The translations under genes and the position numbers were made by a program. The notes beneath the pieces were generated by a model. The model worked only from the letters and a program-made list of their open reading frames with translations, ran no database searches and was not told the origin of the DNA. From Pseudomonadota bacterium (lineage in GTDB: Bacteria > Pseudomonadota > Gammaproteobacteria > UBA1113): a stretch of DNA of 64,000 bases. Positions 1,319 through 38,261 of the stretch are shown here, piece after piece. Position 1 is the stretch's first letter. Each line of letters starts with the position of its first letter. The stretch lies in assembly GCA_021778015.1 (NCBI GenBank), contig JAJYCX010000007.1:17078-81077 (forward strand), in the 5' to 3' direction.

Positions 1319-1455
1319 TATATGCTCACAGCAGTTGATTTTTAGGCGTGGCGCCGAGCTCGCGAGCACTAGGAATGACGTATTCCGTCATATACTAGTG
1401 CGAGATGGGCGAAGACAAAAAAGCCTAAAAATCGAATGCAAAGAGTATATTATTC
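1319..1455 (-). repeat. MITE-1 family copy A, a ~135 bp non-coding repeat. It is inserted in the ftsL-ftsI spacer and its terminus overlaps the ftsL stop codon.
   Basis: About 80% identical by eye to copies at 14668-14800, 29119-29252 and 58258-58408 (reverse-complement orientation here). Shared termini are tatactcttcgcattt and caactgctatgagtatatta. Confidence 0.7.
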
Positions 1456-4067: not shown

Positions 4068-4252
4068 TTGTCATCCTCAACCAGGCCACGAGGCCGCAGT
4101 CGGGGATCCAGTAAAAAACTTAATTTGAAACTGGATTCCCGACTGCGACTAGAGCCTGTCCTCGGTACTCCGGGGAATGACAAAGCTTCGATTAAAATCT
4201 ATAGCATTCATCAAGATCTCGCATCTTCAAGTACGAAGAGTATATAACCGCC
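4068..4252. repeat. REP-2 family composite palindromic element (copy F)
   Basis: gtcatcctcaaccaggccacgaggccgcagtcggggatccag…ctggattcccgactgcgac…ggaatgacaaagcttcgattaaa…atctcgcatcttca. It is shared with copies at 8116, 19234 and 22507. The tail contains cgaagagtatat, which is also the MITE-1 terminus. Confidence 0.65.
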
Positions 4253-4667
4253 GATATAAATAGATCAAAGCATAGGTTGATACCAATCCAATCATGCCAC
4301 CCAGCACAACATTAAGAATACGGTCAAAAGCAATTTGCATAGAACCTTGGTTGACTGCATAAATAACAACACAACCGGAACGTAGCAGATAAGCGACAAA
4401 ATAATCTCTAAACATTTTCAAACTGAGACAAATTAATATAAAAAAAAAATAAGGCACTAAAATCGAATGCGGTAAAACTAAGCCTATCCCTAAACCAGCA
4501 CACACTCCAATTCCACCTGCCATGGCACGGTGTTTAAATTTCAATAATACCGCATCCAGCTCTGGATAAACCACACTCAAACTAGACCAAATAACCCATT
4601 CTGGTATTGCCACGCTGATTATCGGTATCCAACGCCATAATATTGATCCGTGAAAATGAAATTTCAA
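4227..4667 (-). CDS. Hypothetical integral membrane protein (146 aa, ~4 TM)
   Basis: Hydrophobic ORF that overlaps the downstream gene by 4 bp. No recognisable family. Confidence 0.4.
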   Translation of the reverse strand: MKFHFHGSILWRWIPIISVAIPEWVIWSSLSVVYPELDAVLLKFKHRAMAGGIGVCAGLGIGLVLPHSILVPYFFFILICLSLKMFRDYFVAYLLRSGCVVIYAVNQGSMQIAFDRILNVVLGGMIGLVSTYALIYLYRRLYTLRT

Positions 4668-8056: not shown

Positions 8057-8115
8057 TATACCCATTCTACTTCAAGATATGGAGCAATACTTTCTACGAA
8101 CACCATACTAAAACG

Positions 8116-8266
8116 TTGTCATCCTCGACCGAAGGTCGGGGATCTAGTTTTATATTAAGTTTTCCTGGATCCCAGATCGGAACCTGTACTCGGTACTCCG
8201 GGTATCGAGGATGACAAAGCTTCGATTAAAGTTCAATGCGTTTATTCAAATCTCGCATCTTCATTG
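8116..8266. repeat. REP-2 family element (copy G)
   Basis: gtcatcctcgaccgaaggtcggggatctag…ctggatcccagatcgg…gtatcgaggatgacaaagcttcgattaaa…atctcgcatcttca. Confidence 0.65.
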
Positions 8267-28249: not shown

Positions 28250-28999
28250 TTAAAATACCGCTTCTAGGCCTAATAATAATAACTTGGTGACAGGACTACT
28301 CCCACCGTCCTGTATTATATCGGCGGTAGCGCCATAAGAACGTACATATTGGTATTCTAATTGTAGCTGTATGCTGGGAAATAGTTGATAGGCTGGTCCT
28401 ATATTGTATTGCACACTGTTGAAGCCCTGCCCTATTTGTGCATAATCTAAAGTTTTCGTCGCCGCAATCATTTCTACGGAGGTAATAAGGGACAACTTAC
28501 CTATTAACTTTGTATCGCGCAAGAAGGTTCCATCTATCTCACCGCTGCCATCGTGCCAGTAAGCACGAATGTCTGTATCGATATCGAATGGCAAAGTTCC
28601 TTCTACGCCCCCGCCCGGCCGCCAATATGCCGCTGGTAAATAGCTATAATCGGCACCACCCTTAATAGCCCAATTGTCACTGAGCTTGTGCCAACCAAAA
28701 ATATCGAAGTAGGCAAAAGTCAATGTGCCGTTGGTAAATTGTGCTTGGTTGGTAAAAAGCTCTATTTTATTATCATCGGTACCAAACAAGACTCTTGCGG
28801 TGATGAGATCAATATCATCCGGAAAATCGTGGCCATATTGCCAATCATTGCTTAAAGATAAGCCTGATGATGACGGAGGAGCAACAACGGGTGCAGTAAT
28901 ATCGGGAGGATTCTTCGTATCCGCAGTAACATCCGCAAATGCGCTAGAAAGAATACAGTTTAGAACAATAAATAACCAAACTTTATGGGTAATACGCAT
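28250..28999 (-). CDS. Putative outer-membrane beta-barrel protein (MipA/OmpV-like?) co-oriented with the czc operon
   Basis: 249 aa, signal peptide, amphipathic beta-strand pattern, C-terminal aromatic (…GLEAVF). Confidence 0.4.
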   Translation of the reverse strand: MRITHKVWLFIVLNCILSSAFADVTADTKNPPDITAPVVAPPSSSGLSLSNDWQYGHDFPDDIDLITARVLFGTDDNKIELFTNQAQFTNGTLTFAYFDIFGWHKLSDNWAIKGGADYSYLPAAYWRPGGGVEGTLPFDIDTDIRAYWHDGSGEIDGTFLRDTKLIGKLSLITSVEMIAATKTLDYAQIGQGFNSVQYNIGPAYQLFPSIQLQLEYQYVRSYGATADIIQDGGSSPVTKLLLLGLEAVF

Positions 29000-29036
29000 T
29001 TATGCTTCCTTTCAGTGACTGGTATCCTTTTGTTTT

Positions 29037-29113
29037 TGGTGCGCCCGGAGAGATTCGAACTCCCGACCGCCTGGTTCGTAGCCAGGTACTCTATCCAACT
29101 GAGCTACGGGCGC
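29037..29113 (-). tRNA. tRNA-Arg (anticodon ACG)
   Basis: The reverse complement GCGCCCGTAGCTCAGTTGGATAGAGTACCTGGCTACGAACCAGG…CTCTCCGGGCGCACCA is near-identical to E. coli tRNA-Arg(ACG). Confidence 0.9.
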
Positions 29114-29118
29114 ACACC

Positions 29119-29252
29119 ATCCATACTCTTCGCATTTGCTTCTTAGGCTTTGTTGCCTTCGCCCATCTCGCATCAGTCATGTAGGGTACTACACTCCTGA
29201 TGCTCGAGGACTCGGCGCCTCGCCTAAAAACCAACTGCTATGAGCATATCAC
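29119..29252 (+). repeat. MITE-1 family copy C, filling the tRNA-Arg/tRNA-Ser spacer
   Basis: ccatactcttcgcatttgcttcttaggctttgttgccttcgcccatctcgcatcag…caactgctatgagcatatcac. Confidence 0.7.
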
Positions 29253-29260
29253 TCTAAACG

Positions 29261-29353
29261 TGGTGGAGAGAGAGGGATTCGAACCCTCGATGAGGCTATA
29301 AACCCCATACTCCCTTAGCAGGGGAGCGCCTTCGACCACTCGGCCATCTCTCC
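29261..29353 (-). tRNA. tRNA-Ser (anticodon GCU), long variable arm
   Basis: The reverse complement GGAGAGATGGCCGAGTGGTCGAAGGCGCTCCCCTGCTAAGGGAG…GGGTTCGAATCCCTCTCTCTCCACCA. Confidence 0.85.
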
Positions 29354-34851: not shown

Positions 34852-35985
34852 ATGGTTCTAACATTGAAAACTAAAATCTCCCTTTTTCTGTTAGGCTTAG
34901 GCCTAACGTGTGGTTCAATTTACGCTGCACATGGCGATGAAACACCCCTACCGGTATCCAACGATATTAACGTCACCGCACCAGAACAATCAGGCATATG
35001 GTCTTTTGGCGTAACGGCAGTCCTCATGCAACCCGCCAATACGGGCTACAATTACGCTGATAGAACCAATGCTACTGTTCAATTCGCCGGCGGAAACCCT
35101 GTAGCGGAGCCGAGTAATAGCACAAAACCCCTAGTGCTGGATGAAAGCTATTATTGGTGGTTTGGCGCCGATGTGAGCTATGCTTTTCCCGGCAATGGTA
35201 GAGATGTCACCTTAGCGTATGAAGGCTTACACGGCACTAGCACTGACAGTGCCAGTAATAATTATAATAATGACGTACCTCAGCTTAGTGAATACCATCT
35301 TTTACTGAGTGCAATGACTGTCTATCCAATAACCTCTATCCAAGCTGAAACAGACACGCAATACGATGCGGGCGATCTACTCTTTGGCCAAAAATTAGAT
35401 GTAGGCCAGCGCATTCATCTACATCCCTTCATAGGTCTGCGTTATGCACATATCGATGTAAACAATAGCTTTAAGGATACTCTAGAACCTTTCCCTATTA
35501 CCGATAATGGTTATAATGGTGGCAATGAGAGTGGTGAGATAGACTGCACATTTAATGGCATTGGCCCACGCTTAGGCAGCGATGCTAATGTCACTTTGGG
35601 CAATGGTTTCTCTGTACATGGGCGTTTGGGTTTATCTGCACTGATAGGAAGCCAAAAATACAATGAAAGTTATACGCAAACAATCTTAACCAATAACGCT
35701 TTTACTCCACCAACCGTGACCTATACCAAAAACCAGGATAGCGACGCAGAGACGCGGGTTATTCCTGAAATTGATGGTCGCTTAGGATTGAATTATAGCC
35801 ATAGCACTGATTCCAATATGACCTTAGGTCTAGAAGCTGGTTGGCAAGTGACCGATTATTTTCAAGCAATTGCTAATCCAAGCCTAGTAAATGGCAATGG
35901 CAATTCCTTTACACCAGCCCGCCAAGGAAATACGGATTTCGGCCTACAAGGTCCTTATGCGCGCTTACAGTTAGATCTTGCATAG
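34852..35985 (+). CDS. Legionella-MOMP-family outer-membrane porin, paralog 1
   Basis: Signal peptide. WSFGVTAVLMQP, FNGIGPRLGSD…GNGFSVHGRLGLSALIGS, VIPEIDGRLGLNY and FGLQGPYARLQLDLA align by eye with L. pneumophila MOMP (OmpS). Confidence 0.75.
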   Translation: MVLTLKTKISLFLLGLGLTCGSIYAAHGDETPLPVSNDINVTAPEQSGIWSFGVTAVLMQPANTGYNYADRTNATVQFAGGNPVAEPSNSTKPLVLDESYYWWFGADVSYAFPGNGRDVTLAYEGLHGTSTDSASNNYNNDVPQLSEYHLLLSAMTVYPITSIQAETDTQYDAGDLLFGQKLDVGQRIHLHPFIGLRYAHIDVNNSFKDTLEPFPITDNGYNGGNESGEIDCTFNGIGPRLGSDANVTLGNGFSVHGRLGLSALIGSQKYNESYTQTILTNNAFTPPTVTYTKNQDSDAETRVIPEIDGRLGLNYSHSTDSNMTLGLEAGWQVTDYFQAIANPSLVNGNGNSFTPARQGNTDFGLQGPYARLQLDLA

Positions 35986-36025
35986 CTAGAATGTAACAAT
36001 TTATGAATAGGGATGATTTTTAAAG

Positions 36026-37120
36026 ATGAAAAATAAAATTTATTTAGCGCTATTGTGCGTGGCCTGCAGCTCAGCTTACGCCGCCCATGGTAATGAAGCT
36101 CCCCTACCAGTATCCAATGATGTGAATGTCACCGCACCAGAGCAATCCGGTGCTTGGTCTTTTGGTGTGACGGCCGTGTTGATGCAACCCACTAATAGCG
36201 GCTATGAATACGCAATTACCGATCAATTTAATGCAAACGATCCTATAGATCCTTCGGTTTATGGGGATACGATTAAAACTTCCATTCTGAATGAAAATTA
36301 CTATTGGTGGTTTGGGGCCGACATAACGTACGCTTTTCCAGGCAATAGCCGCGATGTGACTTTAGCATATGAAGGACTACACGGCACTACTACCGACAAT
36401 GCCAGCAATAATTTTAACAATGATGTCGCTCAAAGTTCTATTTACTACTCTTTAGTAAACCCTATTACAAATAACGATGTAGCTTCTATTCAAGCCGAAA
36501 CAGATACGCGCTATGATGCAGGCGATCTGCTGTTTGGCCAAAAACTCACTATAGGACAACGTATCCAGCTACATCCTTTCATCGGTGTGCGCTATACACA
36601 TATTGATGTGCAAGACAGTTTTAAAGATACCATGGAGTCGTTTCCTAGTGAAGGTGCTGAAGGAGGAAATGAGAGTGGTAACTTAGGCAGTACCTTCAAC
36701 GGCATTGGCCCGCGCCTAGGCAGCGATGCGGGTATTATTTTAGGCAAAGGCTTTTCCATACGCGGTCGTTTAGGTTTGTCCGCTTTGATAGGTTCTGAGA
36801 AAAGCAATTATAACTATGTTTCTACCTATTTGTTTTCACCACCCAGCACTATCGTTCCCTTTACACAGACCGTAAATCGCGATATTTCATCAAAGACAAT
36901 GGTCGTTCCTGAACTCGATGGCCGTTTAGGATTAAATTATAAACATAGCTTAAATTCTACTATGGACTTGGGTGTTGAAGCGGGTTGGCAGGCAACCAAT
37001 TATTTTCAAGTGATCAATGATCCGATGCTCAGTTCTCCTGGCGGCACACCAGCCCACGATAAATATTCCGACTTTGGTCTGCAAGGGCCCTACGCACGCG
37101 TACAATTGGATATTGCATAA
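36026..37120 (+). CDS. Legionella-MOMP-family porin, paralog 2
   Basis: Same conserved blocks, divergent surface-loop segments. Confidence 0.75.
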   Translation: MKNKIYLALLCVACSSAYAAHGNEAPLPVSNDVNVTAPEQSGAWSFGVTAVLMQPTNSGYEYAITDQFNANDPIDPSVYGDTIKTSILNENYYWWFGADITYAFPGNSRDVTLAYEGLHGTTTDNASNNFNNDVAQSSIYYSLVNPITNNDVASIQAETDTRYDAGDLLFGQKLTIGQRIQLHPFIGVRYTHIDVQDSFKDTMESFPSEGAEGGNESGNLGSTFNGIGPRLGSDAGIILGKGFSIRGRLGLSALIGSEKSNYNYVSTYLFSPPSTIVPFTQTVNRDISSKTMVVPELDGRLGLNYKHSLNSTMDLGVEAGWQATNYFQVINDPMLSSPGGTPAHDKYSDFGLQGPYARVQLDIA

Positions 37121-37133
37121 ACAATAAATAAGG

Positions 37134-38261
37134 ATGATTTCTAAAATGAAGACGAAACTTTTTGTAACGCTTTTAAGCTTAGGTTTGGTTTGCGGCTCAG
37201 CTTATGCTGCTGCGGGTAACGAAGCGCCCCTACCTATGTCCAACGATGTTAATATGACGGCACCGGATCAATCCGGCAGTTGGTCTTTAGGCGTGACAGG
37301 CGTTTTGATGAAACCCACTAATAGTTCCACTAATTATGCTACCCAATTTGATTACACTGTGGATAGTCATGGCAATCATACTAATACTACCACTACGCCC
37401 GAAACGGTAACAGCTGGCTATTATAAATGGTTTGGTGCCGATATCACCTACGCTTTTCCGGGTCATGGCCGCGATGTAACCTTAGCTTATGAAGGTTTGC
37501 ATGGTAGTTCAGCGGATAGTACCACCAATAATTTTGATAATCAGATTCCGCCCCCTGCTACCTATCATTATTTAACAGGCAATATTACTAGCGCAGATCT
37601 TTCTTACATTAAAGCTACAATCGATACACAATACGATGCAGCAGATCTGGTTTTTGGTCAAAAACTCAATGTAGGACAGCGCGTTCAATTACACCCTTTT
37701 ATGGGTTTACGTTATGCACGCATCGATATAGAACAAAAATTTAATGAAACTTTTGAAGCATTCCCCAACGATGGCAATTTTGGTGGTAATGCGGATGGTA
37801 AAGCTGACTCTACCTTCAGCGGCATCGGACCTCGCTTCGGCAGTGATGCGGGTCTTATACTGGGTCAAGGATTTTCTCTACGCGGTCGTTTAGGCTTGTC
37901 CGCATTGGTAGGTTCTCAACAATACACTGTAGCCTACAATCAAAACGTTATTGATAGAGATGTATTTAACTTACCTCCGACGTCGCATGAGTCCACCAAG
38001 ACACTGGATGATGGCTCAGTCACTCGTATTATTCCAGAAATCGATGCCCGCTTGGGTTTAAATTATACCTATAATTTTGCCTCTAAAACGGCGCTGGGGT
38101 TTGAGGCAGGTTGGCAAGCAACAGATTATTTGCAAGCAGTCAGCAATAATTCAGTTTCCAATACATCTAAAGACGATTTTGGTGTCGAGCCGCCACATTA
38201 TGAATATTCTAACTTTGGATTACAGGGACCCTATGCACGTATACAACTGGATGTGGCATGA
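37134..38261 (+). CDS. Legionella-MOMP-family porin, paralog 3
   Basis: Same conserved blocks, the most divergent of the three. Confidence 0.75.
   Translation: MISKMKTKLFVTLLSLGLVCGSAYAAAGNEAPLPMSNDVNMTAPDQSGSWSLGVTGVLMKPTNSSTNYATQFDYTVDSHGNHTNTTTTPETVTAGYYKWFGADITYAFPGHGRDVTLAYEGLHGSSADSTTNNFDNQIPPPATYHYLTGNITSADLSYIKATIDTQYDAADLVFGQKLNVGQRVQLHPFMGLRYARIDIEQKFNETFEAFPNDGNFGGNADGKADSTFSGIGPRFGSDAGLILGQGFSLRGRLGLSALVGSQQYTVAYNQNVIDRDVFNLPPTSHESTKTLDDGSVTRIIPEIDARLGLNYTYNFASKTALGFEAGWQATDYLQAVSNNSVSNTSKDDFGVEPPHYEYSNFGLQGPYARIQLDVA

Follow-up and report, generated by a model that had tools for sequence, protein, structure and literature searches.

A short repeat occurs several times in the window, by which we mean the whole 64,000-nucleotide stretch of DNA analysed here, and three of its copies touch the stop codon of a neighbouring gene. 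Does the repeat supply these stops, does it seek out gene ends when it inserts, or does the contact have some other basis?

Copies of the repeat in the window

The five copies listed in the original prediction (c1 to c5) are real: they could be aligned over their whole length, and matches to the terminal 17-mer and 18-mer with up to three mismatches occurred eight and four times in the window, against 0.24 and 0.07 expected. We added a sixth, degenerate copy. Throughout, L denotes the end of the element that reads TATACTCTTCGC and R the end that reads TATACTCAYAGC.

1321–1449, minus strand: c1, full length (129 bp), between ftsL and ftsI (nhmmer, 119.9 bits)
9849–9910, minus strand: sixth copy, degenerate and short, absent from the original list
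14671–14797, plus strand: c2, 127 bp, R end towards an ArsR/SmtB-like gene (nhmmer, 133.9 bits)
29122–29248, plus strand: c3, 127 bp, between tRNA-Arg (29037–29113) and tRNA-Ser (29261–29353)
58276–58405, minus strand: c4, 130 bp, divergent subfamily, L end towards a peroxiredoxin gene (nhmmer, 111.6 bits)
59026–59090, plus strand: c5, 65-bp internally deleted short form flanked by TG...TG, between the grx stop and the prx start

These refined limits are close to those first proposed, except that the start of c4 had been placed at 58258, 18 nt too far out. The common termini, evident from the recurrence of the 17-mer and 18-mer, and the long hairpin were both borne out. Each full copy in the window folds as a single long imperfect hairpin, with z-scores of −4.8 for c2 as RNA and −5.1 for c1 as DNA, while a search against Rfam returned only the two tRNAs and no known RNA family for the element. 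Elements lie in the window at a density of about one per 10 kb, also inside essential operons. Copy c1, whose L end (TATACTCTTTGC) faces ftsL, keeps its position between ftsL and ftsI in a species with flanks 83–87% identical (L041), and the L end of the sixth copy is flush with the TAA stop (9911–9913) of a gene for an AAA_14/DUF4143 ATPase recognized by Pfam. No stop codon is involved at c3, which lies 8 and 12 nt from its two tRNA neighbours.

Extent of the family and its hosts

An exact-pattern scan of 185,579 species genomes yielded 70 loci, all in seven MAGs of uncultured Gammaproteobacteria, with zero stray matches. A family profile built on the window copies gave 110 non-overlapping matches, 83 of which are full-length and lie outside duplicate contigs. 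Together with the filled and empty orthologous sites described below, the 70 loci in seven MAGs uphold the original view of a MITE-like family. BLAST searches for homologues of the element in plasmids and in E. coli found none.

The family consensus is 127 nt long and almost fully palindromic. Its limits are marked by a conserved TATACTC...GAGTATA, the termini reading TATACTCNTC...GANGAGTATA. Across the 83 copies TACTC...GAGTA is conserved to at least 95% at every position, mostly to at least 97%, and 127 of 166 ends (77%) have the outer TA. The triplet beyond the terminus varies: TAA precedes the L end in 14 of the 83 copies, TTA follows the R end in 3, and 62 of the 83 L flanks have no stop-like triplet. 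Since this triplet is variable among copies, the TTA that had been read as the element's last three bases, doubling as a stop codon, is flanking sequence and lies outside the element.

FtsL, Prx and the ArsR-like protein of the window found matches only in metagenome contigs and two NCBI MAGs, on which ground we rejected Coxiella burnetii as the source. The major outer-membrane protein of Legionella (PF05150) has three paralogues in tandem at 34852–38261; the domain was confirmed for the first, and the other two are assigned from the repeat structure (segments 65–79% identical). Together with ankyrin and DUF3573 proteins, these Legionella_OMP paralogues suggest a Legionellales-like, host-associated organism.

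The window also contains a second repeat family of about 215 bp, here MITE-2, at the following positions.

4069–4248: MITE-2 copy
8082–8263: MITE-2 copy
19272–19324: MITE-2 copy
22444–22657: MITE-2 copy

Its terminal repeats, TATATAC(CCAATACAC/TCTTCGTAC)TTSAAGATGC, agree with the terminal repeat of E. coli ERIC at about 20 of 26 positions and are closer to it than those of the 127-bp family. An ORF with a FUSC_2 domain (4227–4667, minus strand) runs 18 nt into a MITE-2 terminus (...RRL|YTLRT*), and the def stop (22440–22442) lies 1 nt from a MITE-2 copy. Between this stop and the 3' end of tRNA-Arg, at about 22443–29036, is a 6.6-kb block encoding CusA-, CusB- and CusC-like efflux proteins and CopB. 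Only 4 nt separate def from tRNA-Arg in a related MAG (L061), which makes the block a tRNA-adjacent island; a MITE-2 copy marks its border, and it lacks an integrase. Elsewhere a 99-nt inverted repeat (15193–15291 and 17999–18097, 91% complementary) encloses an ankyrin-repeat gene together with an ORF of 656 aa that Pfam did not match.

The stop codons of ftsL, the ArsR-like gene and prx are native

All three stops lie where the original prediction had placed them, each touching a conserved terminus of the element without a spacer.

1450–1452, minus strand: TAA stop of ftsL (ORF 1450–1782), flush with the L end of c1
14798–14800, minus strand: TAA stop of the ArsR/SmtB-like gene, flush with the R end of c2, in a terminator loop
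58406–58408, minus strand: TAA stop of the 1-Cys peroxiredoxin gene (prx), flush with the L end of c4

They do not share one terminus, as had been claimed: ftsL and prx adjoin the L end (tatactcttcgc), and the end reading ...ctatgagtata is adjoined by the ArsR-like gene only. All three are the genes' own stops, against which the element lies flush. Copy c4 is absent 3' of prx in the orthologous loci L053 and L034, where prx ends at the same TAA and is then followed by unrelated terminators; the three C-termini read ...DNADVL* in the window and ...DNADVL* and ...DNVDVL* in the two element-free orthologues. Protein profiles for FtsL, ArsR and Prx end within a few residues of the C-termini. The Pfam profile of FtsL (97 positions) matches as far as position 95, at residue 109 of the 110-aa protein, and for the ArsR-like protein (NF033788, E = 1e-14) the profile reached position 74 of 77 near the C-terminus. 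The same profiles confirmed, or all but confirmed, what the three genes encode.

The flanks of c2, AGCTTCTTTA and TAAAGAAGCT, can base-pair, and a T-run (ATTTTTTTATT) comes directly after them. Folded without the element, the site forms a stem of 10 bp whose 7-nt loop holds the TAA, which indicates that c2 landed in the terminator loop of the ArsR-like gene itself. The T-run is part of this interrupted native terminator; around c2 (14500–15300), the only copy scanned for one, we found no T-run of the element's own. Insertion into hairpin loops was considered as a general rule and rejected, complementarity between flanks exceeding chance in only about 5 of 78 copies, c2 included.

As to the other end of the ArsR-like gene, a perfect sigma-70 consensus (TTGACA, 18-nt spacer, TATAAT; 15104–15133, minus strand) lies inside its 132-aa ORF. 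This placement suggests that the true start is probably Met34, which would give a protein of about 99 aa.

Contact with stop codons across the family

We examined 166 element ends, 58 of which have a converging long ORF that stops within 60 nt. At 14 of these 58 gene-facing ends the stop lies exactly at the element (offset 0), as TAA in nine cases, TGA in three and TAG in two; this is close to the genomic stop usage of 51/23/26% (TAA/TGA/TAG). Any other single offset accounts for at most four ORFs, apart from two classes that read into the element, 11 ORFs to a TGA at element positions 16–18 and three to a TAG at positions 9–11. Among 392 element-free long-ORF stops that served as the null, 1.6% of the TA sites within 0–60 nt are at offset 0, and in a more generous null 8.7% of stops directly precede TA. 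With orthologues collapsed, 12 of 34 ends remain at offset 0 (P = 1.5e-13 against the 1.6% null and 1.7e-5 against the 8.7% null). Flush contact with stops is non-random and family-wide, and the enrichment at stops (14 of 58 ends against about 1.6% expected) holds for the sampled loci, which were chosen for containing the element, come from fragmented MAGs and have ORF-based gene calls. The earlier proposal that the element targets stops at gene ends is sustained as to the non-random contact but not as to a stop-like target, all three stop types being used and most L flanks having no stop-like triplet.

Genes with flush stops include rplL, mreB, clpB and genes for a zinc alcohol dehydrogenase (ADH) and a TPP enzyme, and the L7/L12 profile extends to the C-terminus like those of other flush genes. 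Read-in genes include greA, rimP, trmD, parA, cmk, prmC, dnaX and a histidine kinase gene. Comparison of orthologues at empty and filled sites gives ...AELIKE* against ...AELTHSS* for TrmD and ...ARGHLVAAELLKKA* against ...AKGYTHSS* for RimP; for greA, cmk, parA, prmC and dnaX the C-terminal change is seen as read-in. The idea that insertions redefine C-termini accordingly fails for ftsL, the ArsR-like gene and prx, and holds for these seven other genes, from filled and empty sites (trmD, rimP) or from the read-ins themselves. Read-in also has a frame preference, with stops at +18, +11 and +25/31 in a ratio of about 9:3:2 once orthologues are collapsed. At the empty sites of trmD and rimP the change amounts to an insertion or replacement 5' of the stop. 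We rejected an origin of the +18 read-ins by insertion into the TA of the stop itself, the far-side flanks mostly having no starting A or G.

The two ends behave differently

Flush contact is largely a property of one end. Among L-facing stops, 10 of 23 are at offset 0, compared with 1 of 49 among those facing R (P = 1.9e-5), whereas copies at 9–260 nt from a stop comprise none that are L-facing and 17 that are R-facing (P = 4.5e-4). The R end accounts for most read-ins; there ORFs extend 3–8 codons into the element and terminate at a stop that the element encodes. Within tandem gene pairs the R end faces the upstream gene in 34 of 42 copies (34:8; P = 7e-5); the downstream gene starts 1–30 nt from the L end, and many copies fill nearly the whole spacer.

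Orientation also sets which RNA strand would be made. The mean RNA MFE is −56.3 kcal/mol for the strand read from R to L and −44.0 kcal/mol for that read from L to R, and the R-to-L strand is the more stable one in 76 of 81 copies. Its 29 consensus pairs are 95.9% paired, 17 of them with changes on both sides, and it contains 231 G·U cells against 24 A·C cells. This is the pattern to be expected if the RNA hairpin were constrained in the usual orientation of transcription. Part of the G·U asymmetry goes back to master copies, and a strand-specific mutation bias could contribute as well. Folding and gene order together indicate that the copies are preferentially oriented so that the stabler, G·U-tolerant hairpin strand would be transcribed with the upstream gene. 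The element lacks the T-run of an intrinsic terminator at either end.

Mobility, target site and short forms

Past movement of the element is evident from filled and empty orthologous sites, tandem and nested copies and recurrent short forms. Tandem copies share a TA or abut at TA, and one gene end has been occupied independently in two lineages, flush in L063 and 3 nt away in the opposite orientation in L047, with an empty site in L039. Two filled/empty pairs fit a 2-bp duplication (c5 and L034 against L053, with TG...TG; L008b against L058), and two fit no duplication (L049 against L013; L063 against L039). Flanking repeats are at most 2 bp long, and where the ends are not TA, some vary in the manner of inverted repeats, not of direct ones. 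Plain TA-targeting is plausible. A 3-bp TNA duplication, an attC-like site and a SECIS-like role were also tried and rejected, on the misfit of flanks, of the polarity of the core-like motif and of stop types.

Several sites scored as empty look like remnants. Leftovers of 8–12 nt (TATAGGTTTA; GCATACCCGAGT) that resemble fused element tips remain at seemingly empty sites (window 59497–59514 against L053 1449–1575; L058 about 2125–2149 against L008 2683–2809), and may be near-complete deletions or excision footprints.

The fifth copy had been described as internally deleted, and the 65-bp c5 is indeed one of several short forms of 65–67 bp.

Window 59026–59090: short form (c5)
L061 4271–4335: short form
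L015 about 2481–2547: short form
L071 about 2732–2795: short form

They share the junction GTTGCCTTCGCC|TAAAAA, a deletion between TCGCC direct repeats of the two arms. The deletions are independent: L061 has a short form where c3 is full, and the short c5 corresponds to a full-length copy in L034 and to an empty site in L053. In the MAG JBIPMB the orthologue of c3 is a 67-bp short form.

Near-identical strains had no insertion polymorphism, spacing being equal in all contigs, from which we infer that activity is not recent. The search for a cognate transposase came back empty: about 600 kb of sequence yielded no transposase whose inverted repeats match, and no IS was seen in the window or the 70 loci. 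Pairs of termini 0.2–4 kb apart were chance pairs only, and no pair enclosing a gene, as an autonomous partner would, was seen. Among the 69 window ORFs that are 100 aa or longer, 50 were scanned with Pfam, and these included no transposase, neither TnpA nor TnpB; of the other such ORFs, two have JGI-precomputed Pfam assignments and the rest are mostly shadow ORFs over longer genes.

Relation to ERIC and other known elements

For comparison with ERIC we used one E. coli copy (L086:80–206), obtained with the ERIC core as query. This copy is exactly 127 bp long and bounded by TATACTC...GAGTATA, with length and terminal heptamers identical to the family's. Its global identity to the family consensus is 66% (80/121), in one orientation only; against shuffles that preserve the palindrome and the arm composition the alignment has z = 4.8, with 0 of 1000 shuffles reaching its score, and the other orientation z = 1.0. 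ERIC and the family have the same basal stem (7 bp, a 3-nt internal loop, 3 bp, a bulge and a long stem), and both have TA flanks, internally deleted short forms, overlaps with the 3' ends of genes and orientation dependence. The strand asymmetry of the E. coli copy as RNA (−52.9 vs −43.2 kcal/mol) matches the family's direction, and the ybhI stop lies 1 nt from its L-equivalent end.

The ERIC-PCR core (ERIC1R/ERIC2 region) is not conserved, as neither blastn against 5,426 E. coli genomes nor nhmmer gave a match. The range differs too, the family's host being apparently Legionellales-like whereas ERIC is found in Enterobacteriaceae and Vibrionaceae (PMC10969869). ERIC is a TA-flanked, TA-duplicating and co-transcribed MITE that overlaps some gene ends, and its effect on the upstream mRNA is orientation-dependent, an RNase E site being exposed in a ribosome-dependent manner (PMC2759123, PMC2229807, PMC10969869). 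We would file the family as a divergent ERIC-like element (ERIC/IRU/RU-1) and, because the core is not conserved, not as ERIC proper. ERIC elements have been reported flush against gene stops. De Gregorio et al. reportedly found in 2005 that Yersinia ERICs overlapping or adjoining stops favour one orientation and distant ones the other, which is the pattern we see in the family. We still know of no established transposase or origin for ERIC. The kind of element is known; what is new is the lineage and the quantified asymmetry of its ends.

Other small repeats are less close. Correia/NEMIS elements of Neisseria resemble the family as TA-flanked MITEs of about 100–155 bp with long RNA hairpins, and they are co-transcribed with neighbouring genes, affect mRNA processing and carry stops in several frames (PMC2229807). 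Their processing is by RNase III. To our knowledge, their terminal repeats and IHF site are unrelated to the family's. RUP of S. pneumoniae is likewise a MITE; it has a TA target, a length of about 107 bp and stops in all frames, and its mobilization by IS630-Spn1 is the best-supported example of a TA-duplicating transposase at work in trans (PMC2229807). The partner IS of RUP, with matching inverted repeats, is known, whereas none was found for the family in the window and 70 loci. REP/BIME units are palindromes of 20–40 nt with a GTAG or CGTC head, against a family unit of 127 bp in which GTAG is confined to the hairpin tip and to some of the copies.

Explanations for the contact with stops

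We consider the repeats to be a non-autonomous 127-bp palindromic MITE, a divergent relative of ERIC/IRU, whose flush contacts with stops would reflect which insertions are retained given their hairpin; we put the probability of this reading, model included, at roughly 0.7. The element would have spread in trans by a transposase absent from our data, probably at TA as for ERIC. Persistence of an insertion would then depend on the transcribed hairpin against the terminating ribosome, and for a copy in the disfavoured orientation survival, or an advantage, would require that the ribosome stop directly on it. This persistence model was put forward for Yersinia ERIC, with ribosomes unmasking a site for RNase E.

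Random insertion followed by purifying selection alone would give equal offset-0 counts for both orientations, so the spike at the L end needs either positive selection or oriented targeting. The contact of L end and stop might be a selected, ribosome-coupled module, or the product of an insertion mechanism that reads translation stops, although we think this rather unlikely. An insertion machinery that places the L end directly 3' of stops, or of some feature coinciding with them, would account for the sharp spike at offset 0 on one end only, for the gene end occupied twice independently (L063 flush, L047 3 nt away and opposite, L039 empty) and for a slight over-representation of TAA ahead of the L end, which persists at sites with no long ORF ending there. 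We doubt such oriented targeting no less, as the three stop types occur in genome-like proportions, unlike a DNA motif, 62 of 83 L flanks have no stop-like triplet, copies also lie in tRNA spacers, promoter regions and terminator loops, and the terminal seven bases, equal at both ends, offer no obvious basis for orientation. Tight gene packing has in its favour that copies nearly fill their spacers, with starts 1–30 nt from the L end and c3 only 8 and 12 nt from its tRNAs, but it predicts a spread of small distances at both ends; the R end has this spread and the L end a one-position spike, which is significant even against the 8.7% null (P = 1.7e-5). That the contact is a by-product of packing, of no significance in itself, is very improbable.

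We give almost no credence to an element tip that carries TAA/TTA and supplied new stops and C-termini to ftsL, the ArsR-like gene and prx. Read-ins do exist in the family, and the FUSC_2 ORF runs 18 nt into MITE-2. The adjoining triplet nevertheless varies, TGA and TAG abut the element too, element-free prx orthologues share the stop position, a terminator loop that predates the insertion holds the ArsR stop, and the FtsL, 1-Cys Prx and L7/L12 profiles extend to the C-terminus. An IS200/IS605-type, palindrome-associated element inserting as a single strand 3' of a short fixed target such as TAA, as had been suggested, would suit the contact of the L end with particular triplets, the strand-asymmetric behaviour and the two filled/empty pairs with no clear target duplication. 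Elements derived from IS200/IS605, however, lack terminal inverted repeats and use a fixed 4–5-nt target, whereas the family is a palindrome over its whole length, with identical terminal heptamers rather than subterminal hairpins, has variable L-flank triplets with no constant 4–5-nt target, and includes one copy with a TG...TG duplication; no TnpA or TnpB was found in the 50 Pfam-scanned window ORFs, nor a longer element with these termini in the loci. Such an origin is hardly credible. Scarcely more tenable is membership in the QMITEs of Coxiella burnetii, of which the original prediction had been reminded. The likeness is generic: the host appears Legionellales-like (Legionella_OMP, ankyrin, DUF3573) and so of a related order, and QMITE2 likewise sits in 3' UTRs, overlaps gene ends by 1–10 bp and has truncated short forms. 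Size and repeats differ from the 127-bp, TA-flanked element in both QMITE families, since QMITE1 is 300–400 bp long with 21–28-nt terminal inverted repeats and an IHF site (PMC5896051), and QMITE2 is 150–190 bp long with 7–11-nt direct repeats and a GTAG REP that is the target of IS1111, features of QMITE2 that were not seen in the family. In addition, the exact-pattern scan of 185,579 species genomes matched the seven MAGs only, and plasmids had no match.

Implications

For annotation, C-termini reading ...THSS* or ...TLRI* should be taken as element-derived, while stops that merely adjoin the repeat should not. If the flush contact is a ribosome-coupled module, the terminating ribosome would melt the base of the hairpin and set mRNA decay or downstream translation, with ftsL–ftsI, rplL, mreB, clpB and prx as candidate genes. 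The copies collected here provide clean statistics on the relation between hairpin and stop, in which the L end is the one that lies flush with stops and the R end the one that donates the last residues and the stop. Read as a divergent ERIC/IRU relative, the family extends ERIC-type elements to a distant and probably host-associated gammaproteobacterial lineage, and the ribosome/RNase model of Yersinia ERIC could become testable in a second system.
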